From NCBI GenBank assembly GCA_028686345.1, contig JAQUCE010000002.1:42735-106734 (forward strand): a DNA stretch of 64,000 bases, in the 5' to 3' direction. Below, one piece after another: positions 14,881 to 40,890 of this stretch (position 1 is the first letter of the stretch; every line of letters begins with the position of its first letter). Under the pieces are notes generated by a model that was not told where the DNA came from, did not search any database, and saw only the letters and a program-made list of their open reading frames with translations. The stretch is from Kiritimatiellia bacterium. Lineage in GTDB: Bacteria; Verrucomicrobiota; Kiritimatiellia; RFP12; UBA1067. Made by a program: the position numbers and the translations under genes.

Positions 14881-14892
14881 CTTAGCGGTGAA

Positions 14893-19976: not shown

Positions 19977-22900
19977 CTATCGCAGTATCATCAGCGTGCC
20001 GACCAAACGGTGGAGTGTGACAACGCCGACATCGTAATCATAGTTGATGCTCCAGCTCGACGGCAGGTCATCTGAGGTAAATGTACCGCTTAGGGCTCCG
20101 CTGCACTGCAAAATGGTGTAGGACAGCGCCGTTAATTTCTCAGGATCCTCAATCCTCAACGCAAGAGAGCTGATATCAATATTACCTTGAACATTGATGC
20201 AATCCGCACTGCCCGGGCCGGCGGTGAATGAGTAATTGCCGGCGAGTGAGGGCGAGCCGTCGAAGGTCAGAGTCCCAACCGTACCAACCCCGCCCGGTGC
20301 AACAGAGCCTGTGACAATCAGACCGTCACAATCCATGACAGTGCCAGAGCCCGCAATCGCAGCCAGTGTCTGCGGCAAGTAGCTCACATCAAACACGGCG
20401 TTGCTCTCAACAGTGGCAGAGCTGGCCGGGTTGAGACGATTGGCACCGCCGCTGAGGCGCAGCGTGCCGCCCGAGACAATGGTTTCTCCAGTGAAGCTGC
20501 TGACACCCGTGAGGGTCAGCATGCCGCTGCCGGCTTTATTAAACAGAGCCAGATCGGATATGCTGCCGCCAAAGGTGGTATCACGATTGTCAAGGCCAAC
20601 TCTCAGCTCTGCCGCGCCTGTCGCGCTGCTCAGAACATGGCCGTCACCGCGCAGCGATGCAACTGCCTGAACCGAGTCTGCCAGATCCAACACTCCGTTT
20701 TTCTCAATGACCAGAGCGGTTGTTTGCGGCAGGACATTGGTCAGCACCGTTGACTGCGTGCTGCCGAACCACTTGAGATTCAGATATCTTTCAACAACTT
20801 CACGCTGCGAGTTGCTCAATGCGGTTTTGTAAACCAGCACTTCGCCGATGTCACCAATGTAGGAGCGGTGCTCAGTCACATGGCCCCAGTAATCGCCGAC
20901 CGCGCCTGCAAATTTTCTGACAGCTACCGAAGTGGCGGCCAGTACGTGCGGCGTGCCCTGGATGTAGCTTCGGGTATTAACCCCGTTGACATAGAATGAA
21001 GCGCCGCGCGCAAAATCATTTTTATCGCCATCCTGCCACATGGCTGCACTTGCTGCACGGACACCAAAATCCGCCCCTTTGCTGCCCCAGATACCTGAGA
21101 GGTTCATCTGTCCTGTTTTGTTGTTGACGATCAGCACGGTCTGATTGTCAACAACGTTGGTGGCATAGAGACGGTTCCAGTTGCCATCAAAGCGAACGGC
21201 CCCTTTGCCGTTGATGGCATCACTTACATAGGAAGGATACTGGTTGTAGGCATCGCCAATCTCCTGCACAAAATGGTTGTTGTTGCCGCTTGAGTCAGCC
21301 CAAGCAACCACATTTGCGCCAGAGAGGGTCACTGTGTCAGGGGTGCTGGCATCCAGCTGATAGGCAAGATCGCTTCGGTAGGGAACCTTGCCAACCGAGG
21401 CTGAGAGTTTAACGGTGCCCTCTGAGATTGTGGTTGCTCCCTGGTAGCTGTTGCTGCCGCCAAGAACCAGCGTGCCTGCGCCGTCTTTGTTCAGGTCAAT
21501 GATGTTGCCGCCATCGTTGATTGAACCCCAGTAGATTGACTCTGAGCCAGCGGCAACATCAAGATTCAACGCAGCCGAGGCTGCGTTGCTATTGGTAATG
21601 CTCCCGATGCCGCTCAAAGAGTTGATCGTGATGCTCTGTCCGTTCACATCCATGATGCCGGAGATACCGACTTGCGGCGAAACCGCGTTGGAAGCGAGGA
21701 CAACAGAGCCGGCAACCACCTCAATATCGCATGCAACCGCACCTGCGAGGGTCAGTGCACCGCTACCGACTTTCTTCACTACGCCTGAGCCCTCAATCTT
21801 GTTGGTGACAGTTCGGGCCGAGCTGTTATCAAAGAGCAGCGTGCCGCAGTTCACAACATCACCGATACCGAGAGTGCCGCCTTCATCAACCTGCAGTGTC
21901 CCTTGGTTGATAACGGTGCGTCCCTGGTAGCTGTTTTGTGCGCCAAAAATAATTGTGCCCGATGGTCGGTCAGCACGATGAGTGTTAATCTCCAGGTCGC
22001 CGGTTCCGGTAATAGGCTGGGAGAAGCGTCCTGATGACGCAACTCCATCCGCGCCAACACGCGCAGTGCGCATTAACTCAACCGGGGCATCAATTACGCC
22101 CTCGTTTTCATTGAGGAATGTTACCGCACCGTGGACGTAGTAGAGAGGGCCACCCACGCCGGCCAGGTGCATGGGGTTGGTGATGGTGCCGGCAAAATTA
22201 AAGAGAAAGCAGCCGCCCACCAGGTCGCTGCCATAGATATAAAGATCACCGGAGCTGAAGCCCTGAGGGCTGGCAAGGGTTACCCGTCCATTGAGAATAT
22301 GGGTATCACCAAGATAGGTGTTGCCGGCCGGCGCAGTCAGGTTCAGGATCTCGCTGTTGCCATATCCTGCAATTGTCAGCCCGTTGTCTCCGGTAATGGT
22401 TGAGCTGATGGTATGGCCAGGCGCATTGTAGTTATCAATGTAAATAATGCCCTCTGAGCTCTGAAAGTCAAGTGTCCCCCCGAGCAACGCGCTTCTGCCG
22501 GCAGAGTCACGATTAAGGATCAGGCCAGCTGGATTGACACCATCGCCGATGGTCAGGGTTTCGCCGCTGTTAACAGTCAGGTCAGCTCCGGTCAGGCGCA
22601 GCCCATGCACATGAACGCTGCCCGTGGCAGTGTCAGCAGAGAGCGTTGCAAGTGAGGACGCGCCGCCGCCCAGCCCGGTGGTGTAAGTGGCATCAATCAA
22701 TCCATTGACCCCGTTATAATTCAGAAAAGAGCCGCTGTACCAGCTGCTGCCACCCCAGATGATACCCAGGATAGACGGAGTTACCATGCCGCTGGTTGTG
22801 TTCAAGCCGCCGTTGGCTATTATTTTTTCATTCACGCCGAAGTTTGCAGCACCCAGCCCGCCGAACGGTGCCACCAGCAGAACGCCATGGTCCACACGGT

Positions 22901-24981
22901 TTAAAGCCGAGTCAGGTGTGGCGGACGGATGGCCGATCTCCAGCGTCAGAGTTCCGGCTGTGGGTTTGTGCAAACTCAGGCTGGCCACGCCTCCGCCAAA
23001 GCTGAGCGAATCAGCGGGAGCGGCATTGGCAAATTTTTGAACCAGGAGTTCGGAGCCTGTCGACCCGGACTGGACGCGGATCTCGCCATGCTCGATATGC
23101 ACTGTATTGCTGCCCAGCGGTTGCGCGTCCTTGCTCAGGGTGCGCAGCAATCCGTCCCGCACAACTGTCTTGCCTGTGTAGCGCATATGGTTGCTCAAAT
23201 CAAGCCGCCCGATGCCGCTCTTGATTAACCCGCCGTCTTCTCTGCCGAAAACTCCGGAGTAGAGGGTTGGCTGGAAAGCATACTGTCCACTGGCAGCAAC
23301 ATCAATCCGTGCTCCGCCATCTAACACCGAGAAGGTTGAATAGAGCGGATTATCATAGGTTGTTGTATTAACTTTTGGGCGGAGTATGCCGCCGTTAAAA
23401 TTAAATTGGATGGTATTATCGACATCGCAGTTGCCAGCGTTGTTGTCTAAAGCATTGAACGCCAGAGTTCCGCCAGACAGCTCAACCCTGGAATCGCTGC
23501 CACTCGTGCCTTTGCTCATAAGCTGGATGGTACTCCCATCAACAAGGGCATTGTTGGTCAAAATCAGGTCATGCGACCAGCCATCGCTGGCCAGCCGCTG
23601 CGTGCCTTCCATTGTCACCCTGCCATCCCCGGCGACCTTCAATCCAAGGCCGCGCGGGGGATTGACAAAACGGATGTTGAGCTCTCCGCCGCTGACAACG
23701 CCATACACGCGGTTGGTGTTATTCATTCCCCTGGAGACATTAAAGTTGGCCTTTCCGCCACTCTGAGTGTACATAAAATTTCTCTGGCTATTAGCACCAA
23801 AGTCAGAGCTGAAATGCCAATCGCCTCCAGTTACGTTGAGAGCAGATAGAAGATTGTTATTGTTGTAAGCAAGATTTCTGCTGCTCCCTTGATTCAGTGT
23901 GATGGAGGTGTTTCCGCTGAGCGCACCCTCGCTGACAACACTTATCGAGGAGTCAATAAAATGGCCGCCGTTGACAACCAGGCCCAGCCCTTTGTCAACC
24001 CTGATCGCCAGATTGGAGCTGCTGCCGCCGCTAATGGTTGCGCTGCCGCTGTTGATATTCAACTGGCCGCCCTGCATATCCAGCGAGCCCAAGGCAATCT
24101 CAGAGGAGCGGTTTTTATTGATGTTGCCAAGACCGGTGATAGAGTTCGGATAGGTCATCGCATCTTTGTTCTCAATATTGAGTGCTCTGCCGCTCATGAT
24201 TGTGATGCAGCTGGAGTTGGTGATGGCACCGTTGTAGGTGGCACCGTCACCCACAGTCAGGGTGCTGCCCTTGACAATGGTCGGGCCGGCATAGGAGGTG
24301 TCGGCCAATACCGTCAAGGAGGCCGGCCCTGCTACGGTTAACCCGCCTTTGCCATTAACATCCGCTTTAATGCTGGATGTCCTGGCCGCTGTTCCCAGTG
24401 CCAGCTGAATCGGTTTGCCATCCTGAGATTCGAGCGTAATGGGATTAATACTATCCAGCCAGCCGATGCCGAAATTGACAATTCCGGGCGCAAAACCAAG
24501 CAGTGTCCCAGTGACCTCAGTATCAGAGTAACCCACCTGTTCAAGGGTGTTTGCTCCGCCCAGAACAAATGTACCCGCCGATCGCACGGTAATACTTCCG
24601 CCAGCGGTTCCGTAGGCATATCCAGAGAATGTCAGGGTTCGTCCCTGCAGCCGGCAGGGCATTGGAGCAGTGAAGTTGGTCACAACTCCCTCACCAGTGA
24701 AACAGCCGATATTGTCCGTCTTGCCATTCAAATCAACCGTATGTGAAGGGAGAGACGATCAGCATTCCAAGCGTGAAACCAGCGTTGACAACGACTGGAG
24801 CGGACACCGATCCGTTAAATGTGGCGGAGCTGCCGACACCGTCGGCAATCATGCCCGCTTCCCAGTTGGAGGAAACACTCCATGTGCCACCCGCTGTGTT
24901 GGACCAAACCCCGTCAGCGGCAAAAACCGTTGTAGAGCAGAAAAACGAAGCAAACGCTGTAGCAAACATAAGTTTTTTCAT
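19977..24981 (-). CDS. Giant secreted autotransporter-associated beta-strand-repeat / pectin-lyase-fold adhesin-like protein. It appears interrupted by a frameshift near 24731-24736: an 82-aa signal-peptide fragment (24733-24981) plus a 1584-aa body (19977-24731).
   Basis: The N-terminal fragment MKKLMFATAFASFFCSTTVFAADGVWSNTAGGTWS (signal peptide) ends at TGA. The body resumes in the +1 frame with an open upstream reading (..LNGKTDNIGCFTGEG..). Repeated GxGxLxLxGxNxYxGxTxIxxGTL units are present (e.g. DGAGTLVLGGSNSYQGATTISEGTVKL). Confidence 0.7.
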
Positions 24982-25108
24982 TGACTCAAACCTCCTGGTG
25001 CATTAATAAACCCTGATTCTAAAGCAACCCGTTATACAAATGCTATAACACGACATTAATTTACTATCTTCTGTTATTGTTGTAAAGAGAGATGTGCGAA
25101 GCCAGCAA

Positions 25109-27076
25109 TTAATGCCAGATTCGCTTCGGATTCAAAAAGAGACATCCGGGCACCCCAAGAACGTCCACGCTGTAGTCTTCAAACCCGCCGGCTGCTGGAC
25201 GCTCCAGCTTGATCCGCCATAATCCGCTCTGTGCTGTGTTGCCGTCGAAAGTAAAACGATCAAGGTCAAAGAGGCTCTCCCGCAACCAGGCAACACTGCC
25301 AGACGGATCAATCACAGAGGCCTTAACACCCTCGCCGTCATTACCGGAGACCGCAAAGGCAAAGAGTTTGACCTCTGCCGGCACTGCCACATAAAGTGTG
25401 CCTTGACTTCCAATCAGTTTCACCGGCTGAACAGTTGCATCCAGCGCAACAGGGACATTAGCCGCTTGCAGCAGGAATGAATTCTGCCCTGCGTCAAACT
25501 CCAACCTATAAAACCCGGTTTGCGGAGCGCTGAACTGAATTGTCAGCTCCTGTTTAAAAGCCAGCATCGCACTGCTTTTAAGAGTCTTTCCATCCAGCCC
25601 GCTGATCACCACCGGTTTAGTTGTCTCACCATAGCGTCCCACCTGCTGCTGCACCCCTTTGAGCACCACCTCCCTGTTAGCAGTCGCATGAAAGATGTAG
25701 CTTCCCTGACCTCGCACCCGCATCGGTTCCAAAGGGTGAAGGCCGTCTATTTCATCTTTAACATCCAACTTTTTCCAATCCACCTCCACACGCGCTACCC
25801 GCACGTTGAAACGAGGCGGAAATTTGGCCTTAACCCACTCAGGTGTCAAGGCAATCCGCTGCGTCTGGCTGCCGCAGATTACAACAACATCTCCGGTCAG
25901 GCCTGTTACGGATTCAACATCAAAAATATTGTTACGCCACCCAATCCAAGGCCGCGAAGTTGGTTGCACAACACGCAGCTCCTTGAACCGGATTCCGCCG
26001 ACAGCCGCGACATCCCCATTACGGTTGGAGAGCGTGATATCCAGTTGGTTGCTCTGACCCGCCCCGCACCCCGCAACCGCACACCTGTCAAAGGCCAGCG
26101 CCATCCCGTAATCCGGCTTGCGAGCCAGCTCGATCCCCCCCCTGACAGCATCCTTAAACTCACAATCTGAAAAAACCAACGCGCCTCTAACAGCATCCGC
26201 CTTTGAATTAGCGGTGACAACCCTGACAGCTGTACGGTCGCCAACTGATCGGCAGTTTTCTATCTGAATCGAAACCGGCTCGCTCTGCTGATTCAGGTTG
26301 GGCAGATAGAACTCATAACCATCCCCGGCGTTATTGGATGTCAGGCATCTGCGCATGACAATGTTTTTGAGGCGCTCTTTGGCGCTGTTCGGCTCAAAGT
26401 CAATACCTGCCGCGGGCGGCGTACCAGCAGTATCGCGCATAACAGTATCTTCAATCAGCAGGTTTTCCGCTGAAATCACACTGATTCCCTGGCGATAGTT
26501 CTTGTCGCAGGTCACATCTTTAATATGAATATCTTTATTGGATGGTGCTCCGGTAACGCTTCCCAGATAGATGCCGTCGCCTCCGCTCTCAGCTAGAGTC
26601 AGACCATAAACCTTGATGTTTTGGCAACCGCGAATACTCAGGACATGGCGCCACTCTGCTTTGCGATAGGGCGGGGCATCATAGTCAGCCCGCCGCATAC
26701 GCAGTGTGGCGCCCGTGCCTCGCAGGGTCACATTGCTGACACACGAGAGCAGCATCAAGGAGTCGCCCGTACCTTTGAAAGAGCCCTCTTTAGCCAGCAC
26801 CTCAACCCCGGACTCAAAAACAATCTCCTGATTGCTGACAAGTTTCAGCGGTTCGGTAATCCATGCGCTCGCTTGTCGCTCCACAATCAGCCGCGGCACG
26901 CCAGAATTTATGGCGGCCTGCAATGCAGTGGTTGAGTCGTCCGCATCAAATCCCCACCAGGAGGCGCGCGCCTCCTTCAGTTCACCTGACCTGACGCGAG
27001 CCACCTGATCCGGTGCGGCGGCATATGCTCCAGCCGCGGCAATGGCTGCGAGTAGATATGTAATTGCTTTTTTCAT
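25109..27076 (-). CDS. Secreted right-handed parallel beta-helix (pectin-lyase-fold) protein, a putative glycoside hydrolase or polysaccharide lyase
   Basis: Signal peptide MKKAITYLLAAIAAAGAYAAAP. The WWGFDADDSTTALQAAINSG opening is typical of pectate-lyase-superfamily enzymes, and repeated beta-helix motifs are present. The start was chosen at the internal Met (27076) to avoid overlap with the divergent gene. Confidence 0.65.
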   Translation of the reverse strand: MKKAITYLLAAIAAAGAYAAAPDQVARVRSGELKEARASWWGFDADDSTTALQAAINSGVPRLIVERQASAWITEPLKLVSNQEIVFESGVEVLAKEGSFKGTGDSLMLLSCVSNVTLRGTGATLRMRRADYDAPPYRKAEWRHVLSIRGCQNIKVYGLTLAESGGDGIYLGSVTGAPSNKDIHIKDVTCDKNYRQGISVISAENLLIEDTVMRDTAGTPPAAGIDFEPNSAKERLKNIVMRRCLTSNNAGDGYEFYLPNLNQQSEPVSIQIENCRSVGDRTAVRVVTANSKADAVRGALVFSDCEFKDAVRGGIELARKPDYGMALAFDRCAVAGCGAGQSNQLDITLSNRNGDVAAVGGIRFKELRVVQPTSRPWIGWRNNIFDVESVTGLTGDVVVICGSQTQRIALTPEWVKAKFPPRFNVRVARVEVDWKKLDVKDEIDGLHPLEPMRVRGQGSYIFHATANREVVLKGVQQQVGRYGETTKPVVISGLDGKTLKSSAMLAFKQELTIQFSAPQTGFYRLEFDAGQNSFLLQAANVPVALDATVQPVKLIGSQGTLYVAVPAEVKLFAFAVSGNDGEGVKASVIDPSGSVAWLRESLFDLDRFTFDGNTAQSGLWRIKLERPAAGGFEDYSVDVLGVPGCLFLNPKRIWH

Positions 27077-27283
27077 ATTTCTCTTCCCTGTTATATTGCT
27101 TGAAATATCCCTTGCCACTACTGCTTTGCAACACAGAGCCGCTTGGCCGGAGCAAAGTCTCAAATCCAACTGAGGGCTATTCTCTCAACTCCTGTCGTAA
27201 ATAACAAGAAACTTAGGCAACCTTTTTGCCAAAAATCAACTAAAGCCCTTGACATAGAGGGTCTCTTGAGTTACAAGCATTCT

Positions 27284-30200
27284 ATGGCTTTTAAATTATC
27301 TTCACTGTTTTCTCGTGCGACGCGTGATTCATCCAGGCGTACCTCAGCACGCACCCCTCGTCGGTTTGGGGGCTCTCGGCGTATGCGCCGCCCCAATTAC
27401 AGCAAACTGCGTTGGCGCGATATTTTCTCTGAAAGAGCCATCCGTTTTCTCTCCTCCTCCCTGGCAAAAGGACGGCGCGGCCGTGATCTGGCATTGGGTC
27501 GGGACGAGCCTTTGCGCGCCGAGTTGCTCAGCTTACAGCAGATCACCCCCTTTGCCAAGGAGTTGGCGCAACAGCACCAGGTGGCAGCCGGACGCGGGGC
27601 TGACAAACTCCTGCCGCAACTGGCTAAAAATCAACGCGCCTTGTACCGCTCCTACGACATTGTCGGCGCGGCGCTGGCGCAGGGACGCCAGCTCGAACCA
27701 GCGGCAGAGTGGCTGCTCGATAACTTCTTCCTCGTTGAGCAGCAGATCAACGATGCCTACCTTCACCTCCCGCGCGCCTACAGCCGCAGTCTGCCTCGTC
27801 TGACAGCTGGCGCGATGGCCGGCTTTCCCCGGGTTTACCATATGGCAATCGAACTGATCGCGCACCTGGATGGACGATTAGAGGCGAACACTGTCACCCA
27901 GTTCGTCTCCGCCTATCAGGAGATTACCCCGCTGCGTTTAAGCGAACTCTGGGCCTTTCCGATTGCCCTGCGTCTGGGGCTGATCGATAATTTGCGCCGC
28001 GTGGCAGCGCGGATCGCCCGGCGGCGGCGCGAGCGCGACGCTGGCATTGCCTGGGCCGAACGCATGATCGCCACCGCCGCCGAGCAGCCGCAACGGTTGA
28101 TCCGACTGCTGGCGGAATTTGCCGACAGCGAGACTAAACTCACCGCGCCGTTCCTGGAAGAGTTCAGCAGCCGATTACGGGGCCAAGGCATGGCACTCGC
28201 CTTTGTTCTGAACTGGGTTGAGCAAGCCCTGGCCGACAAGGGCACCAACGAACCCCAGCAGCTGCAAGCCGATAGCCATGCGCAGGCCGCAGAGCAGGTC
28301 TCCATTGCCAACAGTATCGCCAGTATGCGCTTCCTTGGCGCGCTGGATTGGAAAGAGTTTGTCGAAACCCTCAGCGTCGTGGAACATACCCTGCGCGGCG
28401 ATCCAGCCAACGCCTATTCAGAGCAGGATTTTGCCACGCGCGACCGCTACCGCCATATTATCGAACGCCTCGCCAAGCGTAGCGACCAAGATGAAGCAGC
28501 AGTCGCACGTAAAGTCGTTGAGTTGGCACAAGCGCACGCCGACCATGATGACGCGCGTAAGAGCCGGGAGTCGCACATCGGCCACTACCTGATCGGCGGC
28601 GGCGCGCAGCAGCTCACCCGGGTGCTGAAGTGCCGCGGCCTCCTCTGCGAATGCGCCTTGCGCCTGTGCACGCGTTACGCGCTGCTCCTATATCTTGGCC
28701 CGATTTTTATGATCACCGCTGCGGCCACCGCCGCCACCATACCCTGGTTTTCCAGCCTGGGCATGGCCTCGCCGCACTTTTGGCTGTTTGTGATCACAGC
28801 CGCGATCGGCGCTTCCGCGCTGGGGGTCTCGCTGGTCAACTTTTTGGCGACCCTGCTCGTCCCGCCGCGCCCGATGCCACGGCTTGATTACTCCCAGGGC
28901 ATACCCTCAGACCAGCGCTCCATCGTGGTCATCCCCTGTTTACTCAGTAACGCGGCAACCGTTGAACGGCTGTTGGAAGCGCTTGAAATCCGCTACCTCG
29001 GCAACCGCGATCCGAACATAGGCTTTGCTTTGCTCAGCGATTTCGTCGATGCCGAGAGTGAGACCATACCAGCTGACGAGGAGTTAATTGCTCTGGCCCG
29101 CGCAGGAATCGCAGCTTTGAACGAGCGCTACCAAACAGCTGAGCAGCGCGCGCTTTTTTACCTGCTCCACCGCCCGCGCGTTTGGAACCCGATCGAAAAT
29201 CAGTGGATGGGCTGGGAGCGCAAGCGCGGCAAGCTGGAGCAGTTCAACGCTTTCTTACGGGGCGAGGCGCAGGATGCGTTTTCAATCATCGACGGCTTCC
29301 GCCCATTTTTACGCGCAGTCAAATACGTGATCACCCTGGATGCCGACACCGAGTTGCCGCGCGGCGCGGCGCACCGTTTGGTGGGTGCCATGGCGCACCC
29401 CTTGAACCAGCCGCGTATCGACCCCAAAACCCGCCGCGTTGTTGAAGGCTATGGCATCTTGCAACCGCGCGCCTCGATCCGCTTGACCGATGGCCAAAGC
29501 CGCTTTGCCTCCCTTTTTTCAGGCGCGACCGGTTTGGACCCCTACACCCGTGAGGTCTCAGATGTCTACCAGGATCTCTTTGGCGAAGGCTCTTTTGTTG
29601 GCAAGGGCATCTATGATGTTGATGCCTTCCGCGAAGTGCTGGAGGGGCGTTTTCCTGAGAATCAAATCCTCAGCCACGATCTGCTGGAGAGCTGCTATGC
29701 CCGCTCAGCGCTGTTGAGCGGTGTCGAAGTCTATGAGGACTTCCCTGCCACCTATCTGGGTGAGATCAGCCGCCAGCACCGCTGGACCCGCGGCGATTGG
29801 CAGATTCTGCGCTGGCTCTTCCCGCGCCCGCCCACCAGCACGGCTCAGCGCGACTCCAACCCGCTCTCAGCCCTCAGCCGCTGGAAGATCTTCGACAACA
29901 TCCGGCGCAGCCTCGTGGCCCCCGCCTTACTGGTGTGGCTGATTGTGGGCTGGGCCGTGACACCTGACTGGTCCTGGCTTTTCACCGGTTATGTGCTGGC
30001 GATCCTGTTCTCCAGCGGCATTCTGCGTACCCTCACTAACATTGTACGCAAGCCCGAGACCAGTGAGTGGCATCTCCATTTGCGCTCTGTTGGCAGCACA
30101 TTCGGCCTCTGTTTTGCCGAGCCGCTACTCGCCTTGGCCTGCCTACCCTACGAGGCCAGCATTACCCTGGATGCCTGCTGCCGCGCCACTGGGCGCTTTG

Positions 30201-33200
30201 GCATCACCCGCCGCGGTCTCCTGCTCTGGAACCTGCCGCAAGACCAGCGTCGTAATCAACGGCGCACCCTCGCTGGATTCTTAATCGAGATGTGGCCGAC
30301 CGGCTGCTTGACGCTGGCCGGCGTGGCTGTCTGCTGGCTGGTGCCGGGCCAGCCCCTTGCCCGCCTGCCACTGATCGGCGCCTGGCTGTGCGCCCCGCTG
30401 ATCGCCTGGTGGCTCAGCCGCCCGCCCCGCGCCGCCACCCCTGAGCTGGCCCCCGCGCAAAAACAGTGGTTGCGGGCGCTTGCCCGCCGGACATGGCGCT
30501 TCTTCGAGGTCTTTGTCACCGAAGAAAACCAGTGGCTGCCACCTGATAACTATCAGGAAACACCCGCGCCCGAGATCGCCATGCGCACCTCGCCCACCAA
30601 CATGGGGCTGGCACTGACAGCCAATTTGTCGGCCTGGGACCTTGGCTACCTGTCAACAGGGCGGCTACTGGAACGCACCGAGCATATGCTGAGCGCCATG
30701 AAGCAACTGGAGCGCTATCGCGGCCACTTTTACAATTGGTATGACATCCAAAACTTGCAGCCCCTGCGTCCGCTCTATGTCTCCAGCGTGGACAGCGGTA
30801 ACCTGGCAGGCCACCTGGTTGCACTGCGGGGCGGGCTCAGTGACCTGCGACAACAACCAGCTCTCTGCCCGCGGGATCAGATCAAGGCCGGTTTGCGCGA
30901 CACCTTGAGTGTGTTGCGGCAAGAGAGCGGACGCCGCGCGCCACCACTCTTGGCGCAGGCGTTGGCAGCCGCCAAAACCGCAGTTCAGGGACTCCCGCTC
31001 GCTGATGAGAGCGACTTTCGCACACCGCTGGCAACCACCCTGCAGGTCGCCGCGCTACTCTGTAATGCCGCCGAACCTGTGGGAGGCGAGGTGCTAGCCT
31101 GGGCCAATGCGTTTATGGCGCAGTGCGAGGACCATGTTGCCGACATAGATCTGTTCGCGTCGGGCACCCGTACCCAGGCACATGCCCTCTCCCTTGAAAT
31201 GCTGGCGCAAACACCTGACGCTGACAATGCGCCGGCCCAACGCCGGGCAGTCACCCGGCTCCAGAGCATCACCAACCTGGAGCGGGTGTGCGCGGAGATG
31301 GAAGCCGCGATGGACTTCCGCTTTCTCTATGACTCGGCGCAGAACCTGTTGAGCATCGGTTATGATGTCAGTGCCCGTCACCTTGACCCCGGACGTTACG
31401 ACATGCTGGCCTCCGAGGCGCGTCTTGCCAGCTACCTGCTGGTGGCCAGTGAGCAGGCACCGGTTGACCATTGGTTCGCTCTGGGCCGGCTGCTCACACA
31501 ACACAAGCGAGCCACGGCCCTGCTATCATGGAGTGGCTCGATGTTTGAGTACCTCATGCCGGCCTTGCTGATGCCCCACTACCGCAACACGCTTTTGGAG
31601 CGCACCTGCCGGGCAACTATTGCCCGTCAGATCCACTATGGCCGTCAGCGCAACGTTCCATGGGGTATCTCTGAATCATGCTACAACGCCCGCGATGCCC
31701 GACATGTCTACCAATACCGGGCCTTTGGTGTCCCGGGTATGGGGTTAAAACGCGGTTTGGCCAATGATCTTGTGATCGCGCCTTATGCCACACTGCTGGC
31801 CCTGCCGTTCGCACCGCAAGAGGCCTATGAGAACCTGCGCCGACTGGTGAGCCAGGAGCGCGCCCTTGGCGCATATGGATTGTACGAGGCCATCGACTAC
31901 ACCCGCTCCCGTGTGCCTCACGATAAAACAAGAGAGGTCATACGCGCTTTTATGGCCCACCACCAAGGCATGGGGCTGATTGCCATGGCCAATCTGTTGG
32001 TCGGCGGACGGATGATCGAACGCTTCATGGCTGATCCCGCTATGCGTGCAACTGAACTGCTGCTCCAGGAGCGCATGCCACAGGCGCTCTCACTGCTGCA
32101 GCCATATGCCCGCGAAGCCGGAGCCGCCACCGAACCAAAGGACGATAAACCGGAAGCCGTGATGCGCGTCTTCTCCGATCCCGACACCTTGGTCCCGGAG
32201 GTTCACTTCCTCTCCAATGGCAACTACCACGTAATGGTCACCCACACGGGCGGCGGCACCAGCCGCTGGCATGATCTGGAGATCACCCGCTGGCGGGAGG
32301 ACGCAACCTGTGACAACTGGGGCTCGTTCATCTACCTGCGCGACGTCGGCTCAGCCGCCGTGTGGTCGGCGGCCTTCCAGCCAACCCGTGATCCGGGCGA
32401 GGACTATGAGGCCATTTTCACACAGGGACGCGCTGAATACCGCCGCCGCGACCATGATCTTGAGACCCACACCGAGATCTGCGTTTCGCCCGAGGACGAC
32501 GTGGAAATCCGCCGCGTGACCCTCAACAACCTGGCACGCCGTCCACGCCGCGTTGAATTGACGAGTTTCGCCGAGGTTGTCCTGGCACCCCAAAACGCCG
32601 ACTTAGCGCACCCGGCCTTCTCCAAGCTCTTCCTGCAAACCGAGGTGTTGCCGGATCGGCAGGCGATCCTATGCACACGCCGCAAACGCTCCCCTGAAGA
32701 TGTCACCCCCTGGCTCTTCCACCTGTTGATTGCGGTCGAAGCCGACCAAGCGCCGACCTTCGAGACCGACCGCGCCAACTTCATTGGCCGTGGCCGCACC
32801 GCTGCCAATCCAATTGCGATGGACGCGCCGAGAGATGAGCCAGCCCCGCTCTCCAATACCGCCGGCGCGGTACTGGACCCGATCATTGCTGTGCGCCAAC
32901 TGCTGGTCGTCCCTGTTGACCGTGTGATCACCACACACCTTGTCACCGGCGTTGCCGCAACCCGCGAAGCTGCACTGCATTTGATCGAAAAATACCAGGA
33001 CTGCCACTTTGTTGAACGCGCCTTTGAAATGGCTTGGTCCCACAGCCAGATCGTTATGCGCCAACTGGCTGTCAGCGAGGCCCAGACCCAGCTTTATGGA
33101 CGGCTGGCCAGCTCCATCATCTATGCCAACGACCACCTCCGCGCGCCAGCCAGTGTGATCGCGCAAAACCGCCTGAGCCAGCAGAGGCTGTGGCACTTCG

Positions 33201-36037
33201 GCATCTCGGGCGATCTGCCGATTCTGCTGATGCGTATCCGCGACCTTAAACGCCTCGACCGTATCCACGAGATATTGCGCGCCCACGCCTATTGGCGCAC
33301 CAAAGGAATCACCTGCGATATTGTGATCATCAATGAAGACTACTCCGGCTACCGGGCAACATTGAATGACCGCATCATCGACGCCATCAACTCCGGACCG
33401 GCCGCTGGACTGCTCGACAAACCTGGCGGCATATTTGTCCGCCGCATCGAAACCTTGTCGGAAGAGGAGCTGACCCTGCTCGCGACCGTGGCACGGGTGG
33501 TGCTCTCCGACACCGCTGAAACCTTGCACGAGCAGGTTGGCCGCATGGTCTCGACCCGACGCCTCCCAGGCCGCTTCCACCCAACACAATCGGATCTGAC
33601 TCCCGTGGTGCCAACCCCGTTGCGCACCCCTGAGAGGATCTTTGTCAACGGCCCCGGCGGTTTTACCCCTGATGGACGCGAGTATGTAATCCGCCTGGCA
33701 CCAGACGAAACCACCCCCGCGCCGTGGTGCAATGTGATTGCCAGCCCGCATATCGGCACCGTGGTGAGTGAGAGCGGCAGTATGTACACCTGGGTCGAGA
33801 ATGCGCACGAATTCCGGCTGACCCCATGGCACAACGACCCGATCAGCGACACGAGTGGCGAGGCCTTCTACCTGCGTGACGAAGCCACCGGACGCTTCTG
33901 GTCGCCGACCATGCTGCCTGCACCCGGTGTGTCAGGCACCATCTGCCGACACGGCTTTGGTTACACGGTCTTCGAATATGAGGAAGCCGGAATCGTCGCT
34001 GAAACATGGGTGTATGTGGCCATGGACGCGCCCGTGAAGTTTGTGGTGATCAAATTGCGCAATCAATCCGAGCAGCAGCGTAAGCTCTCGCTCTCCGCTT
34101 TTTATGAGCTGGTGCTGGGCGAGTGGCGCCACAGCAATGCCATGCACATTGTGACCGAGGTCGATCCCCGCAGCGGCGCGCTCTTTGCCAGTAACCCCTA
34201 CAGCCGCGAGTTCGCCAACCGCGTGGTGTTCGCCAATTGCAGCGTTACCGAAAGATCGTACACAGGCAGCCGTAACGAGTTTATCGGACGCAACGGCTCA
34301 CTTGCTGATCCGGCGGCCTTGCACCGTGAGCGCCTCTCCAATGTGACTGGCGCCGGCTTGGACCCCGCCCTTGGATTGCAGGCCTTCATCACCTTGGATG
34401 CCGGGCAGTCGCAAGAGGTGGTCTTCACCCTCGGCGCCGCCGCCTCAACCGCCGAGGCGCAGAGCTGCCTGCAGCGCTACAGCGGGCCCAACGGCGCCCG
34501 CGACGCGCTGAACGCGGTCTGGGAGCACTGGAACCACACCCTCAGCCGCGTCCATGTTGAAACCCCTGACCAGGCCACCAATGTGCTGCTCAACGGCTGG
34601 CTGCCCTACCAGGTGCTCTCATGCCGCTACTGGGGACGCAGCGGCTACTACCAATCAGGTGGAGCCTATGGTTTCCGTGATCAACTCCAGGATACCATGG
34701 CGCTGATCCATGCCGCACCATATGTGACGCGCGAACATCTGCTGCGGGCCGCCTCCCGCCAATTCGTCGAGGGCGATGTGCAACACTGGTGGCACCCCCC
34801 GCAAGGCGCGGGCGTGCGCACCCACTTCTCTGATGATTACCTGTGGCTCCCCCAGGCAGCCATGCGCTATGTCCAGGCAACAGGCGACACCGGCGTGCTG
34901 GATGAATCCATACCATTCCTCAGTGGACGCCCTGTCAGCCATGATGAGGAGGCCTACTATGAGACACCGATCCACTCGAATGAAAGCGGCACCCTCTATG
35001 AACACTGCGTACGGGCGCTGCGCAATGGACTGCGCTTCGGTGTCCACGGACTGCCTTTGATCGGCTGTGGCGACTGGAACGACGGCATGAACCTCATCGG
35101 ACGTGATGGCAAGGGCGAAAGTGTCTGGCTGGGCTGGTTCCTGTACGACAGCCTGACCCGTTTCTCCGTGCTTGCCAAGGAGCGCGGAGATAAGGATTTC
35201 GCCGCGTTTTCTCTGGAGCAGGCGGGAGCTCTGCTCCTGCGGATCGAAGACGCTGGCTGGGATGGCGCCTGGTACCGCCGCGCCTACTTTGATGACGGCA
35301 CCCCGCTCGGCTCGGCCGCCAACGAAGAGTGCCGTATTGACTCGCTCAGCCAAAGCTGGGCGGTTATCAGCGGGGCCGCACAACCGGAACGGGCGCGCCA
35401 GGGCATGGCAGAGGTCTCTGCCCAGCTGGTTGACCGTGAAGCAGGTATGATCCGGCTCTTTGCGCCGCCCTTTGACAGCAGCGACATTGAACCAGGCTAC
35501 ATCAAGGGCTATCCGCCGGGAATGCGTGAAAACGGCGGCCAGTACACGCACGGCGCGATCTGGTCGGTGATGGCGCTGGCCCTGCTCGGTGAACACAGCG
35601 AGGCGTGGGAGCTCTTCCGTATGATCAACCCGATCCTTCACAGCGATACCCCTGAAAAGGCCGCGCACTACTGCGTGGAGCCATATGTCATGGCCGCGGA
35701 TGTCTATGGTGTTGAACCCCACCGCGGCCGCGGCGGATGGTCATGGTATACAGGCGCTGCCGGCTGGATGTATCGCCTGGGCCTTGAAACACTTCTGGGG
35801 CTGGAGTTGCACAACGACCATTTATTGATCAACCCCAGGCTGCCGGAACAAGGGTGGGATCTCTACCGTATCCACTATCACCACCGCGAGACCGCATATC
35901 ACATCACCATCCGCAAGAGCACTAAGCCCTTGCAGCAGACCCGGGTGCGGATTGACGGCATCAAGCAGCCGGATGCCCGCATCCCGCTGCGCAACGACGG
36001 CGGCGAGCATCAGGTCGAGGTAATGGTTAGGGGTTAG
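27284..36037 (+). CDS. ndvB: Cyclic beta-1,2-glucan synthase (NdvB/ChvB/Cgs family): GT84 glycosyltransferase domain plus C-terminal GH94 (cellobiose-phosphorylase-like) domain. The start is uncertain; the ORF is open from 27143.
   Basis: ~2900 aa. GT84 DxD region VITLDADTELPRGAAHRLVGAMAHPLNQPRIDPKTRRVVEGYGILQPR. Multiple TM segments in the first 1000 aa. GH94 C-terminal signature NGWLPYQVLSCRYWGRSGYYQSGGAYGFRDQLQDTMALIH...WWHPP. Confidence 0.8.
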   Translation: MAFKLSSLFSRATRDSSRRTSARTPRRFGGSRRMRRPNYSKLRWRDIFSERAIRFLSSSLAKGRRGRDLALGRDEPLRAELLSLQQITPFAKELAQQHQVAAGRGADKLLPQLAKNQRALYRSYDIVGAALAQGRQLEPAAEWLLDNFFLVEQQINDAYLHLPRAYSRSLPRLTAGAMAGFPRVYHMAIELIAHLDGRLEANTVTQFVSAYQEITPLRLSELWAFPIALRLGLIDNLRRVAARIARRRRERDAGIAWAERMIATAAEQPQRLIRLLAEFADSETKLTAPFLEEFSSRLRGQGMALAFVLNWVEQALADKGTNEPQQLQADSHAQAAEQVSIANSIASMRFLGALDWKEFVETLSVVEHTLRGDPANAYSEQDFATRDRYRHIIERLAKRSDQDEAAVARKVVELAQAHADHDDARKSRESHIGHYLIGGGAQQLTRVLKCRGLLCECALRLCTRYALLLYLGPIFMITAAATAATIPWFSSLGMASPHFWLFVITAAIGASALGVSLVNFLATLLVPPRPMPRLDYSQGIPSDQRSIVVIPCLLSNAATVERLLEALEIRYLGNRDPNIGFALLSDFVDAESETIPADEELIALARAGIAALNERYQTAEQRALFYLLHRPRVWNPIENQWMGWERKRGKLEQFNAFLRGEAQDAFSIIDGFRPFLRAVKYVITLDADTELPRGAAHRLVGAMAHPLNQPRIDPKTRRVVEGYGILQPRASIRLTDGQSRFASLFSGATGLDPYTREVSDVYQDLFGEGSFVGKGIYDVDAFREVLEGRFPENQILSHDLLESCYARSALLSGVEVYEDFPATYLGEISRQHRWTRGDWQILRWLFPRPPTSTAQRDSNPLSALSRWKIFDNIRRSLVAPALLVWLIVGWAVTPDWSWLFTGYVLAILFSSGILRTLTNIVRKPETSEWHLHLRSVGSTFGLCFAEPLLALACLPYEASITLDACCRATGRFGITRRGLLLWNLPQDQRRNQRRTLAGFLIEMWPTGCLTLAGVAVCWLVPGQPLARLPLIGAWLCAPLIAWWLSRPPRAATPELAPAQKQWLRALARRTWRFFEVFVTEENQWLPPDNYQETPAPEIAMRTSPTNMGLALTANLSAWDLGYLSTGRLLERTEHMLSAMKQLERYRGHFYNWYDIQNLQPLRPLYVSSVDSGNLAGHLVALRGGLSDLRQQPALCPRDQIKAGLRDTLSVLRQESGRRAPPLLAQALAAAKTAVQGLPLADESDFRTPLATTLQVAALLCNAAEPVGGEVLAWANAFMAQCEDHVADIDLFASGTRTQAHALSLEMLAQTPDADNAPAQRRAVTRLQSITNLERVCAEMEAAMDFRFLYDSAQNLLSIGYDVSARHLDPGRYDMLASEARLASYLLVASEQAPVDHWFALGRLLTQHKRATALLSWSGSMFEYLMPALLMPHYRNTLLERTCRATIARQIHYGRQRNVPWGISESCYNARDARHVYQYRAFGVPGMGLKRGLANDLVIAPYATLLALPFAPQEAYENLRRLVSQERALGAYGLYEAIDYTRSRVPHDKTREVIRAFMAHHQGMGLIAMANLLVGGRMIERFMADPAMRATELLLQERMPQALSLLQPYAREAGAATEPKDDKPEAVMRVFSDPDTLVPEVHFLSNGNYHVMVTHTGGGTSRWHDLEITRWREDATCDNWGSFIYLRDVGSAAVWSAAFQPTRDPGEDYEAIFTQGRAEYRRRDHDLETHTEICVSPEDDVEIRRVTLNNLARRPRRVELTSFAEVVLAPQNADLAHPAFSKLFLQTEVLPDRQAILCTRRKRSPEDVTPWLFHLLIAVEADQAPTFETDRANFIGRGRTAANPIAMDAPRDEPAPLSNTAGAVLDPIIAVRQLLVVPVDRVITTHLVTGVAATREAALHLIEKYQDCHFVERAFEMAWSHSQIVMRQLAVSEAQTQLYGRLASSIIYANDHLRAPASVIAQNRLSQQRLWHFGISGDLPILLMRIRDLKRLDRIHEILRAHAYWRTKGITCDIVIINEDYSGYRATLNDRIIDAINSGPAAGLLDKPGGIFVRRIETLSEEELTLLATVARVVLSDTAETLHEQVGRMVSTRRLPGRFHPTQSDLTPVVPTPLRTPERIFVNGPGGFTPDGREYVIRLAPDETTPAPWCNVIASPHIGTVVSESGSMYTWVENAHEFRLTPWHNDPISDTSGEAFYLRDEATGRFWSPTMLPAPGVSGTICRHGFGYTVFEYEEAGIVAETWVYVAMDAPVKFVVIKLRNQSEQQRKLSLSAFYELVLGEWRHSNAMHIVTEVDPRSGALFASNPYSREFANRVVFANCSVTERSYTGSRNEFIGRNGSLADPAALHRERLSNVTGAGLDPALGLQAFITLDAGQSQEVVFTLGAAASTAEAQSCLQRYSGPNGARDALNAVWEHWNHTLSRVHVETPDQATNVLLNGWLPYQVLSCRYWGRSGYYQSGGAYGFRDQLQDTMALIHAAPYVTREHLLRAASRQFVEGDVQHWWHPPQGAGVRTHFSDDYLWLPQAAMRYVQATGDTGVLDESIPFLSGRPVSHDEEAYYETPIHSNESGTLYEHCVRALRNGLRFGVHGLPLIGCGDWNDGMNLIGRDGKGESVWLGWFLYDSLTRFSVLAKERGDKDFAAFSLEQAGALLLRIEDAGWDGAWYRRAYFDDGTPLGSAANEECRIDSLSQSWAVISGAAQPERARQGMAEVSAQLVDREAGMIRLFAPPFDSSDIEPGYIKGYPPGMRENGGQYTHGAIWSVMALALLGEHSEAWELFRMINPILHSDTPEKAAHYCVEPYVMAADVYGVEPHRGRGGWSWYTGAAGWMYRLGLETLLGLELHNDHLLINPRLPEQGWDLYRIHYHHRETAYHITIRKSTKPLQQTRVRIDGIKQPDARIPLRNDGGEHQVEVMVRG

Positions 36038-36059
36038 GGGTTAGGGGTTAGGGGTTAGA
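36025..36059 (+). repeat. Heptamer microsatellite (GGTTAGG)x5 (equivalent to TTAGGGG) overlapping the ndvB stop codon
   Basis: Read directly: ggttaggggttaggggttaggggttaggggttaga. Confidence 0.8.
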
Positions 36060-36720
36060 GGATAGGGGTGTGGTAGTCGAAGGTAGACCAAGGGCATCGA
36101 AGGTAGTCGAAAGAAGCCGCTTGCTGCAAAATGCCGCTGGTAGAGCGGCTACTACACCGAACGACAACCCGTGCATCCCGCAGTGCAGCGCATATGTAGC
36201 AGTCGCTCTACCAGCGACATTGGTTGACGATGCTGTGCGACGATGGCGGTGGACGATTGGGATCATGCGCGCTCTTCCACCAGCATCGTCGCCGCTATCG
36301 TCAACCAAAGGTGCAGCGGATCTCAGTAGGTCCGGTTTCCAACCGGACATGTCCGATTGGAAATCGGAGCTACGTTGCTCCCGCACCAACGCGCGCTTGC
36401 GCCTGCCGCGCGACATGCAAGCTTCACTCAAGTTGAAACTGTAGGGTTGGCGGAACTTGTCCGGCGTAGTTCCGCCATGCCACGGCGTAGCCTCGCTAGC
36501 GGGCGAAGCCGGGTTGCGGGACGAAGACGGATGAGCCAAACAAAGATTATGAAATCCCATGATGCGCCTTTGACAAACAACCACCTGGCATACGCAAATT
36601 GCTTCATAGAAGCAACACTACACCCTAGGGCGCGTTTTTCACGAACTAAATCATGATCCTAGTCAAGCTTCGGCCGACGATGCTGGGCGACGATGTTGGT
36701 GGACGATTGGGATCACGCTA
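36060..36720. repeat. Mosaic intergenic repeat block (family 4 fragments, family 3 copy in reverse orientation)
   Basis: 36420-36600 is the reverse complement of 12380-12560. 36200-36290 and 36660-36720 match the family 4 core gcgacgatg.tggttgacg...caatcgtcc. ORF-track ORFs here are judged spurious. Confidence 0.55.
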
Positions 36721-36726
36721 CAAGCT

Positions 36727-40414: not shown

Positions 40415-40448
40415 TTTCGTTTTCTATGCCCATTTTTCATTTCTAAGA

Positions 40449-40620
40449 TTTTTCACCTCAAAAACAACGCAGCGCGTTGATTCCACTCCGACACAGTTTG
40501 CGACAAAGTTAACGACAAAGTTTACACTTGCGCTGCAAGGTCGTTCGTGGGGCGCGGTGGAGGCAGAGCCCTACCGCTGCGGCCGACAATGCTGTGCGAC
40601 GATGTTGACCGACGATTGAG
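40449..40620 (-). repeat. Dispersed repeat family 4 copy (reverse orientation)
   Basis: Reverse complement of the 1741-1917 / 14599-14880 cores. Confidence 0.55.
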
Positions 40621-40725
40621 AGCTTGCGGGGGCCTAATCCTAATCATTATCCTAATCCCAATCCTCGTCTTTGTTGAATGAAGTACCTCAAGCTTCCAGC
40701 TTGAATGAAAATATCTTCTGCAAGC

Positions 40726-40890
40726 AAGATGCTTGCACTACTCCATTATCGCTTTTACGGTCACGTCACAATAATCCGCCCTGGAGCAGCCTTCCGTCTT
40801 CGCGCTTCGTAGCTACGCCGGACACGGAAAGGCTGGACAACAAACCTTACGGGGCAGCCGTTTGTTGCTAAAGCAGCGGTCTCTTAATCA
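40726..40890 (+). repeat. Structured repeat family 2 copy
   Basis: gcaagcaagatgcttgcactactccattatcgcttttacggtcacg...ggagcagccttccgtcttcgcgcttcgtagctacgccggacacggaaaggctggacaacaaaccttacggggcagccgtttgttg. Confidence 0.6.

Follow-up and report, generated by a model that had tools for sequence, protein, structure and literature searches.

[quoted passage not shown] A preliminary description of the window, i.e., the whole 64-kb stretch of DNA that was analysed, had placed these genes in a PVC-type context, which was borne out by the origin of the window from a Kiritimatiellae/Kiritimatiellia MAG, and had proposed an envelope or host/biofilm glycan locus. The analyses presented here indicated that cgs is very probably a stand-alone gene for a full-length Cgs/NdvB/ChvB homologue, next to which the other genes are incidental.

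Domain organization and functional residues of Cgs

The open reading frame of cgs and the domains predicted within it, named according to PMC10901819, are:

27284..36037, plus strand: cgs ORF, 2917 aa from ATG 27284
27284..28678, plus strand: NTD, cytoplasmic scaffold domain, aa 1-465, collinear with the NTD of Agrobacterium tumefaciens (Atu) Cgs from aa 109
28679..28837, plus strand: TM helices 1-2, aa 466-518 (hydropathy peaks at 466-484 and 500-518)
28961..29893, plus strand: GT84 domain, aa ~560-870 (alignments and motif positions)
29900..30418, plus strand: TM helices 3-6, aa ~873-1045 (hydropathy peaks at 873-891, 896-921, 936-954 and 999-1026)
30419..32113, plus strand: cyclase (CY) domain, GH189, aa ~1046-1610 (phmmer, Pfam PF10091)
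32114..36034, plus strand: GH94 glycan phosphorylase region, aa ~1611-2917 (Pfam, alignment to 8rf9/8rf0)

An alternative start at ATG 27383 is used in GenBank for MDD2597751.1 (P0241), a protein of 2884 aa that begins at M34 and is 100% identical to the window Cgs from residue 34 on. The limits given in the preliminary description were those of maximal TTG-started ORFs, namely 27143..36037 (+) for cgs and 25109..27169 (-) for the divergent beta-helix gene; translation probably begins at ATG 27284 or ATG 27383 in the former and at ATG 27076 in the latter. From these ATG codons the two ORFs do not overlap and are separated by about 207 bp.

Alignment of residues 109-2865 with residues 58-2792 of A. 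tumefaciens Cgs/ChvB (PDB 8RF0, 8rf0_A) scored 1990 bits, and the initial reading of the large protein as Cgs/NdvB/ChvB thus holds from end to end. The protein is a single polypeptide of the 2800-2900 aa class, collinear with characterized Cgs across all domains. Six TM helices (2 + 4), located by a simple Kyte-Doolittle scan and not by a dedicated topology predictor, bracket the GT domain as in the 6-TM layout of Atu Cgs. Pfam analysis revealed the GH94 supersandwich (E 1.8e-160), the GH94 catalytic domain (E 3e-122) and 'Glycoamylase' PF10091 (aa 1374-1574, E 3.8e-20), together with a weak match to Glyco_trans_2_3 at aa 681-909 that was below the cutoff. When the GT region alone was queried against the PDB, Cgs chains were the only matches (E 4.5e-95), and therefore this region was assigned to GT84 and not to a generic GT2.

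Residue-level comparison showed that D586, R646, D686/D688 and D799 of the GT84 domain correspond to Atu D527, R586, D624/D626 and D739, respectively, and that R833-W834 and R836 correspond to Atu R773-W774 and R776. These residues include the DxD motif (D686-A-D688), D799 within SHDLLE, and the QHRW motif at 831-834. In the IF1-homology loop, Y754 (GLDPY754T) was aligned with Atu Y694 (GIDPY694V), the autoglucosylated primer tyrosine according to the work that also defined the roles of the GT84 residues (PMC10901819). The CY region matched, by phmmer, the cyclase of Thermoanaerobacter italicus CGS (TiCGS; 8wy1_A, E 2.3e-86) and 8rf0 (E 2e-80). In this domain, S1167/D1170 correspond to Atu S1101/D1104, the acid/base E1378 to Atu E1300 and TiCGS E1356, the nucleophile E1464 to TiCGS E1442, and E1422 to TiCGS E1400; the three glutamates lie within conserved motifs, and residue roles follow PMC10834661 and PMC10901819. 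The pair H1559-H1560 was placed by motif alone and probably represents TiCGS H1536/H1537. The GH94 region aligned to 8rf9/8rf0 with an E value of 2.6e-156, D2466 (GFRDQLQD) corresponding to Atu D2393 and D2600 (GDWNDGMN) to Atu D2528, the catalytic acid of a module described in Cgs as a length-control and scaffold unit (PMC10901819). All residues reported as important by mutagenesis or structure, with roles taken from PMC10901819 and PMC10834661, are conserved in the window Cgs. The GT84 and GH94 modules previously proposed were hence both found, the latter with its catalytic Asp, while a third catalytic module, the GH189 cyclase, had been missed.

Because the protein is homologous to the A. 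tumefaciens enzyme, a similar mechanism may be proposed. Using UDP-glucose, the GT84 domain would glucosylate a tyrosine in its own loop (Y754) and then extend the beta-1,2 chain; the GH94 phosphorylase module would trim chain length and serve as a glucan-binding scaffold; and the GH189 cyclase (nucleophile E1464, acid/base E1378) would close the chain into a ring by transglycosylation and so set it free. Likewise, we infer the nature and location of the product and also its function, most likely envelope or osmotic adaptation, as in Proteobacteria. There is hardly any probability that the protein is instead a diverged paralogue that makes another product (e.g., a linear beta-1,2-glucan) or acts chiefly as a phosphorylase. 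In its favour, the GenBank name is only "glucoamylase family protein", the Pfam GT match is below threshold, and relatives from the Atu part of the tree are ~42-43% identical to the window Cgs. However, the window Cgs retains the primer tyrosine and three intact catalytic centres, all collinear with those of the characterized enzyme, and the nucleophile and acid/base glutamates of the cyclase are conserved. The GenBank label under-annotates the protein.

Genes beside cgs

The gene divergent from cgs was described as follows:

25109..27076, minus strand: secreted right-handed beta-helix protein, 655 aa, a neighbour outside the cgs unit (Pfam, AlphaFold, Foldseek)

This protein is identical to MDD2597750.1 and comprises an N-terminal signal peptide, read directly from the sequence MKKAITYLLAAIAAAGAYAAAP, a beta-helix at aa ~60-410 and a C-terminal beta-sandwich of ~230 aa. 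Pfam detected Beta_helix only (E 2.4e-7) and the AlphaFold model reached a pLDDT of 92.4, in agreement with the secreted pectin-lyase-fold-like protein described earlier. Foldseek retrieved tailspike depolymerases, the RbmB lyase, the AlgE4 epimerase and GH28 at 9-15% identity. Matches in Pfam, NCBIfam and Foldseek were all to generic beta-helix entries, none of which placed the protein in a particular GH or PL family of CAZy, and the known beta-1,2-glucanase families GH144 and GH162 gave no match. The 2601 homologues are all named 'right-handed parallel beta-helix repeat-containing protein', and the protein belongs to a large uncharacterised family. The other neighbours are a 1584-aa PATR-repeat protein, an FKP-type fucose kinase/pyrophosphorylase and a ROK protein, as the giant adhesin-like gene, the FKP-like enzyme and the ROK kinase noted before proved to be.

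A single envelope or host/biofilm glycan locus made up of cgs and these four genes, in which the beta-helix enzyme would act on the glucan or on a similar polymer of the surface, is suggested by their adjacency, by the divergence of cgs and the beta-helix gene from a common 207-bp region, by the carbohydrate-related nature of all the products and by a beta-helix fold typical of polysaccharide-active enzymes. Comparison with other genomes, however, makes this arrangement highly unlikely as a functional unit, since neither the 90%-identical orthologue nor any of the other cgs loci examined shows this adjacency. In the closest relative, another Kiritimatiellia MAG (L001), Cgs is 90% identical at the amino acid level and 87% at the nucleotide level, and blastn showed 87% identity over 27243..36038 only, from 43 bp before the ATG to the stop codon; cgs is flanked there by a sugar-methyltransferase/GT2 cluster and mutS, unrelated to the window flanks. 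The cgs context differed in each of four further relatives with 65-71% identity (P0003, P0004, P0005, and P0009), and the beta-helix, PATR, FKP and ROK genes were not found beside cgs in L001 or in these four.

In accordance with these results, when 29 proteins of the window were compared by tblastn with 80 cgs loci of species-representative genomes, and also with the contigs of relatives, the window neighbours near cgs (ROK through T2SSF) gave no convincing match across the 80 loci, where only generic ABC, ExbB, DnaX and sigma-54 activator matches and one weak PEGA match were obtained. When the flank ORFs of 85 cgs loci were clustered all against all, no neighbour family included the window; the largest cluster was a Crp-like regulator present in 12 proteobacterial loci. 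A conserved cgs neighbourhood was thus rejected, as neither search gave a neighbour in common with the window.

The beta-helix gene showed associations of its own. In another Kiritimatiellae genome (L086/L087), the orthologues of the beta-helix and PATR genes (63% and 71% aa identity, respectively) adjoin each other with no cgs within 10 kb, while other members of the family are found close to GH16 genes, immediately beside them in L088/L089, at loci that also hold sulfatase, GH130 or rhamnosidase genes. Beta-helix orthologues therefore adjoin PATR or lie near GH16, never beside cgs, which groups the protein with PATR and with genes for polysaccharide degradation; the missing match to GH144 and GH162 further argues against action on the glucan. 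As UDP-glucose is the sole requirement of Cgs (PMC10901819), GDP-fucose salvage is irrelevant to it. The proposal of an envelope or host/biofilm glycan locus was consequently not sustained: the beta-helix, PATR giant protein, FKP and ROK genes stand beside cgs by accident of genome arrangement. As judged from these sequence comparisons, cgs is independent of its neighbouring genes in its genomic placement, which makes a functional link improbable, if only on grounds of conservation.

The absence of an ndvA/chvA-type exporter, also noted before, was confirmed: no NdvA-type exporter or modifying enzyme was detected in the 64-kb window, whose sole ABC ATPase (2377-3081) has an FtsX/MacB permease as its partner. 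When the 80 loci were screened by motif and hydropathy for ABC exporters of the TMD-NBD type, exporter-like ORFs turned up within 10 kb of cgs in two of them. By tblastn, both proteins matched only the MacB-type NBD of the window; that of L054 was a generic ABCB-type protein by PDB search, and the two are not demonstrably Cgt. Because exporters rarely adjoin cgs (2/80), their absence near the window gene says little, and delivery of the product to the periplasm is hypothetical.

Flanking DNA, distribution and origin of cgs

Two segments border the gene:

27241..27283, plus strand: conserved segment of 43 bp (alignment to the upstream DNA of L001)
36038..36726, no strand: gap of 689 bp between the convergent cgs and epimerase genes (tandem and repeat analysis)

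The upstream identity with L001 begins abruptly at AAGCCCTTGACA, the DNA beyond being unrelated. The 43-bp segment carries TTGACA-17 nt-TACAAG, a putative promoter by the sigma-70 consensus, which may not apply to the host phylum; this element stops 6 nt short of the ATG, and the segment moves with cgs. The downstream gap is composed of a (GGTTAGG)x6.4 tandem and a mosaic of intergenic repeat modules (families D5, D9, and D18; inverted pairs I3, I4, I7, and I10), and the ORF at 36048..36584 (-), with no Pfam match, is probably spurious. Repeats of this type occur in nearly all intergenic gaps of the window. The Rfam scan of the window detected tRNAs only, and no match in the cgs flanks.

Homologues of Cgs were found in many phyla, including Verrucomicrobiota, Planctomycetota and Lentisphaerota, and are common in PVC genomes. 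Searches of the literature on Kiritimatiellia and other PVC lineages for cyclic glucan synthase or GT84 found nothing, in keeping with the earlier remark on cyclic glucans being little studied in this lineage, whereas cgs itself is no rarity there. In a neighbour-joining tree (no support values), the window Cgs fell in a clade with L001 and metagenome sequences, next to other PVC branches. Its identity to Cgs of Thiobacillus, Thiohalophilus and Ectothiorhodospiraceae was 56-59%, and to other PVC sequences ~50%. The GC content of the cgs region (0.615-0.62) is seemingly high relative to its flanks, and the GC3 of cgs (0.724) lies within the range of window housekeeping genes (HrpB 0.724, DinB 0.765). 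Recent horizontal transfer was rejected, as this GC3 is typical of housekeeping genes in both the window and L001, and by GC3 and tree position cgs appears to be a native gene.

That cgs might be a recently acquired mobile cassette beside unrelated genes, possibly from sulfur-oxidising Proteobacteria, is accordingly very improbable. The confinement of the window/L001 homology to cgs plus 43 bp, the interspersed repeats that bound cgs downstream in both genomes, the closer identity to the sulfur-oxidiser proteins (56-59%) than to other PVC sequences (~50%) and the position of the sulfur-oxidiser group as sister to the Kiritimatiellia clade all speak for it. However, the supporting tree is a neighbour-joining one without support values, the repeats are not specific to cgs since they fill nearly all window gaps, and the 58% identity implies that any transfer was ancient; in addition, cgs resembles the housekeeping genes of the two host genomes in GC and GC3, and integrase, transposase and direct repeats are all absent from the flanks.

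It is unlikely that the Cgs of Kiritimatiellia and of the related Lentisphaerota would form a distinct clade, a portable promoter-plus-gene module sister to the sulfur-oxidiser Cgs and maybe independent of a Cgt/NdvA-type exporter. If true, the cyclic glucan would stay cytoplasmic or exit by some other route, and its role in these anaerobic polysaccharide degraders would differ from the proteobacterial one of periplasmic osmoprotectant or host-interaction factor. The cgs gene of the window changes little, adding no new system, mechanism or locus. Knowing that Cgs is spread over many phyla, PVC lineages included, as single stand-alone genes helps annotation, and cyclic glucans probably occur beyond the host-associated Proteobacteria.

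Comparison with known systems

The model of the beta-helix neighbour superposed on the RbmB lyase and AlgE4 with target-normalised TM-scores (TMt) of 0.73 and 0.72, and its helix is lined by the invariant acidic/polar motifs GGDGIY, NYRQGISV and GIDFEPN. It differs from RbmB, AlgE4, GH28 and the phage tailspike depolymerases by its low identity (9-15%) and its extra C-terminal beta-sandwich (~230 aa), and by sequence it falls into none of the named CAZy families.

The host of the window Cgs is an uncultured Kiritimatiellia bacterium, whereas A. tumefaciens is a plant pathogen of the Rhizobiales. The exporter gene chvA adjoins chvB, whereas cgs lies in a 64-kb window without an exporter gene. 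Compared to the Atu Cgs (8RF0/8RF9, PMC10901819), the domain order NTD - TM1-2 - GT84 - TM3-6 - CY - GH94 is the same, and Atu residues D527, R586, D624/D626, Y694, D739, R773/W774/R776, S1101, D1104, E1300, D2393 and D2528 are all conserved, while the window protein carries a basic N-terminal extension of ~50-100 aa and is slightly longer (2917 vs. about 2830 aa).

The cyclization domain of TiCGS (8WY1), founding member of GH189 (PMC10834661), matched the CY region at 2.3e-86 as a fragment and 9.5e-122 with the full-length protein. TiCGS E1442, E1356 and the pKa-tuning E1400 are kept in the motifs PWGISES, LASEAR and MFEY, whereas the counterpart of H1536/H1537 was placed by the FMAHHQGM motif and not by alignment, and aa ~1210-1320, between the conserved blocks, are not alignable to TiCGS.

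Finally, the C-terminal ~800 aa of the window Cgs matched cellobiose phosphorylases (GH94; E 1e-86), and the catalytic Asp of DWND and the RD substrate motif of the GH94 phosphorylases (those of cellobiose and chitobiose, and the 1,2-beta-oligoglucan phosphorylase LpSOGP) are kept. In contrast to these free catabolic enzymes, the GH94 module of the window is fused to a synthase, in which it would act as a length controller and scaffold (PMC10901819).

Predicted modules and catalytic residues of the large protein

Both open reading frames of the preliminary description were recovered in the ORF listing, at 27143..36037 (+) and 25109..27169 (-), limits that represent the longest TTG-initiated frames. 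The genes are divergent, with about 207 bp between them, and their likely limits are:

[quoted passage not shown]
25109..27076 (-), beta-helix gene, starting at ATG 27076 (655 aa)

The GenBank protein MDD2597751.1 starts at ATG 27383 (2884 aa) and showed 100% identity to the window protein from residue 34, while the 655-aa beta-helix protein is identical to MDD2597750.1.

Pfam analysis of the large protein revealed a GH94 supersandwich in two stretches (E 1.8e-160), a GH94 catalytic domain (E 3e-122), and a "Glycoamylase" domain (PF10091, aa 1374-1574, E 3.8e-20); a GT2 match (aa 681-909) fell below threshold. Among solved structures, aa 109-2865 aligned with residues 58-2792 of Agrobacterium tumefaciens (Atu) Cgs (8rf0_A, 1990 bits). 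The GT region alone matched only Cgs chains (E 4.5e-95), and was therefore assigned to GT84 rather than to a merely GT2-like fold. The middle region alone matched the Atu cyclase domain and the Thermoanaerobacter italicus cyclization domain (TiCGS, 8wy1), the founder of GH189, and the C-terminal region alone matched Cgs (E 2.6e-156) and cellobiose phosphorylases (~1e-64). In addition, hydropathy indicated that the GT domain is bracketed by two hydrophobic helices on its N-terminal side (aa 466-518) and about four on its C-terminal side (aa 873-1045), a pattern that matches the six-transmembrane layout of Atu Cgs.

Equivalent residues were taken from HMMER alignments, with roles from the cryo-EM and mutagenesis study of Atu Cgs (PMC10901819) and the GH189 study of the cyclase (PMC10834661). 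The numbering of 8rf0_A was taken as native because D624/D626 coincide with the DAD motif.

Table. Residues of the window Cgs (2917-aa numbering) and their equivalents
GT84 D586: Atu D527, UDP coordination
GT84 R646: Atu R586
GT84 D686/D688: Atu D624/D626, DAD
GT84 Y754: Atu Y694, autoglucosylated primer tyrosine in Atu, putative here, GLDPY
GT84 D799: Atu D739, SHDLLE
GT84 R833/W834/R836: Atu R773/W774/R776, (Q)RW motif
Cyclase S1167/D1170: Atu S1101/D1104
Cyclase E1378: Atu E1300 and TiCGS E1356, acid/base, LASEAR
Cyclase E1422: TiCGS E1400, MFEY
Cyclase E1464: TiCGS E1442, nucleophile, PWGISES
Cyclase H1559-H1560: TiCGS H1536/H1537, FMAHHQGM, placed by motif only
GH94 D2466: Atu D2393, GFRDQLQD
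GH94 D2600: Atu D2528, catalytic acid, GDWNDGMN

Judged from its sequence, the protein is thus a full Cgs in which all three catalytic modules are present. The earlier assignment as a synthase with GT84 and GH94 was confirmed, the GH94 catalytic residues being present, and was extended by the GH189 cyclase and the candidate primer tyrosine; the count of two modules did not hold, the cyclase being the third.

Genomic context of cgs and of the beta-helix gene

The context was described as PVC-type, rightly, the source being an uncultured Kiritimatiellae/Kiritimatiellia MAG. A joint envelope or host/biofilm glycan locus, proposed for cgs with the beta-helix, PATR-repeat, FKP and ROK genes, was not supported by comparison with other cgs loci. 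The closest among the genome matches listed is another Kiritimatiellia MAG (L001), whose Cgs shows 90% amino acid identity over its full length. DNA identity between the two was 87% across 27243..36038, with otherwise only short intergenic repeats in common; its sharp upstream boundary lies 43 bp before the ATG, at a putative promoter-like element (TTGACA-17 nt-TA(C/T)AAG), and its downstream end is the stop codon. In L001, cgs is flanked by a sugar nucleotidyltransferase/dehydratase/C-methyltransferase/GT2 cluster on one side and mutS on the other. Four relatives with 65-71% identity lie in four further contexts, all different: GH2 and aconitase genes; toxin-antitoxin and RACo-like genes; type IV pilus/T2SS genes; and an ABC importer with a lyxose isomerase gene.

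The cgs loci surveyed were the best 80 of at least 600 genome matches. Window neighbours within 10 kb of cgs gave no convincing tblastn match at these 80 loci in species-representative genomes, the only matches being generic ABC, ExbB, DnaX and sigma-54 activator proteins and one weak PEGA match. All-versus-all clustering of flank ORFs from 85 cgs loci revealed no family including the window. The sole recurrent, and commonest, neighbour was a Crp/Fnr-type regulator (cNMP_binding and HTH_Crp_2) in 12 of the 85 loci, all proteobacterial (L002, 25577-26377; L003, L009, L013, L020, L021, L028, L029, L043, L065, L070 and L080), which may regulate cgs in those lineages. From these comparisons, cgs appears to be a self-contained unit of gene and putative promoter with freely variable neighbours.

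As first reported, the 64-kb window holds no ndvA/chvA-type (TMD-NBD) ABC exporter; the partner of its sole ABC ATPase (2377-3081) is an FtsX/MacB-type permease. Exporter-like ORFs occurred within 10 kb of cgs at only two of the 80 loci; one of the two was examined and proved to be an ABCB-like protein of a generic kind. Non-adjacency of the exporter is therefore the rule, so that its absence from 64 kb is uninformative about the genome.

The beta-helix protein carries a Sec-type signal peptide, in agreement with its description as secreted. Its family comprises 650-670-aa proteins from Kiritimatiellia, Verrucomicrobiota, Lentisphaeria, Armatimonadota and Planctomycetota; all of the more than 2600 matches are annotated merely as beta-helix repeat proteins, with no characterised member among them. 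In a confident AlphaFold model (pLDDT 92.4, 40 homologues as input), beta-sandwich domains follow a right-handed beta-helix that spans aa ~60-410. Foldseek matches to the model were phage tailspike depolymerases, RbmB polysaccharide lyase, AlgE4 epimerase, GH28 and GH110, each with 9-15% identity, and with target-normalised TM-scores of about 0.72-0.73 for RbmB and AlgE4. "Glycanase-like" thus seems fair for the modelled fold; a specific family or substrate does not follow at such identity.

The genes that accompany the beta-helix gene elsewhere argue against a tie to cgs. In another Kiritimatiellae genome (L086/L087, 4331-11989), orthologues of the beta-helix protein (63% aa) and of the giant PATR-repeat protein (1584 aa; 71% aa) adjoin co-directionally, in swapped order relative to the window pair (19977-27076), close to a 76% orthologue of the window 3-keto-disaccharide hydrolase; this locus has no cgs. 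The adjacency in two Kiritimatiellae genomes suggests that the two proteins work together, perhaps as a glycan-active enzyme and a partner anchored at the surface. Members of the beta-helix family from other lineages have a GH16 gene close by (directly adjoining in L088/L089), at loci that also carry sulfatase, GH130 or rhamnosidase genes.

Repeats and other elements in the window

Nearly all long intergenic gaps are taken up by mosaic repeats; the modules measure 40-140 nt, lie in either orientation and are 78-99% identical to one another:

~1811-2343, 4428-4597, 12266-12886, 14596-14972, 19677-19820
36122-36718, 40426-40867, 44707-44797, 47939-48595, ~55843-55928

Many are palindromic (e.g., 36210-36311), and copies also occur immediately 3' of the cgs stop codon in L001 (18771-19082). 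The modules resemble a REP/BIME-type interspersed repeat system belonging to this lineage; no Rfam family matches them. A G-rich, telomere-like (GGTTAGG) heptamer tandem of 6.4 copies (36025-36069) overlaps the cgs stop codon (36035-36037), with only about 1.5 copies at the orthologous L001 site. The 34-nt unit GCGGATATACTTTGCAATCATCCACCGCATAGCG forms 4.4 tandem copies (96% identity, 4428-4578) upstream of gene 3110-4336 and a single inverted copy just upstream of the ROK gene (14935-14972). A diverged duplication of ~1.4 kb (repeat families D2, D8 and D11; 192-1575 versus 5178-6576, 75% nucleotide identity, spacing about 4990 bp) spans the upstream region and part of gene 4613-6196, which encodes prenyltransferase/squalene-cyclase-like repeats.

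An element of ~6.7 kb, with lower GC and strong AT skew, is integrated at a tRNA (55988-62798). It ends in 108-nt direct repeats, 93% identical, at 55988-56095 and 62691-62798; an incomplete tRNA copy (56039-56108) lies at one of them, and the intact tRNA-Met (62739-62815) overlaps the other. By gene content the element is similar to a phage satellite or PICI-like island:

56237-57823, tyrosine integrase
58423-60993, D5_N/DUF5906 primase
61634-62149, terminase small subunit

Composition, phylogeny and distribution of Cgs

The GC content of the cgs region (0.615) exceeds that of its immediate flanks, but its GC3 (0.724) equals that of core genes of the window such as HrpB and DinB; likewise, cgs GC3 in L001 matches mutS. 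Neither mobility genes nor direct repeats flank cgs in the window. Recent acquisition is not indicated. In a neighbour-joining tree without support values, the window Cgs grouped with L001 and metagenome sequences (P0003-P0016), in a clade sister to a Thiobacillus/Thiohalophilus/Ectothiorhodospiraceae group; Verrucomicrobiales branched beside it and other PVC groups were more distant. Kiritimatiellia/Victivallales Cgs share 56-59% identity with those of these sulfur-oxidising Gamma- and Betaproteobacteria (L002, L019, L038; P0018-P0028), higher than the about 50% with other PVC Cgs. Ancient inter-phylum exchange is possible, a hint that comes from the neighbour-joining tree only.

More than 4000 of 8000 candidates scored passed E 1e-10 as Cgs homologues. 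The best 80 loci include PVC members (Akkermansiaceae, Luteolibacter, Opitutia, Pirellula, Isosphaerales, Phycisphaerales, Victivallales) together with Acidobacteriota, Gemmatimonadales, Bacteroidota, Elusimicrobiota, Chloroflexaceae and many Proteobacteria; given homologues in so many phyla, the presence of cgs here is not unusual. Cyclic glucans are indeed little studied in the lineage, as had been remarked: no publication dealing with Cgs or GT84 in Kiritimatiellia or another PVC group came up in literature searches. GenBank labels MDD2597751.1 a "glucoamylase family protein" and its relatives "GH36-type glycosyl hydrolase domain-containing protein" or "cellobiose phosphorylase"; NCBIfam holds no specific Cgs model, and the family is therefore systematically under-annotated. 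The window Cgs is thus a further member of an already known family, under-annotated in GenBank.
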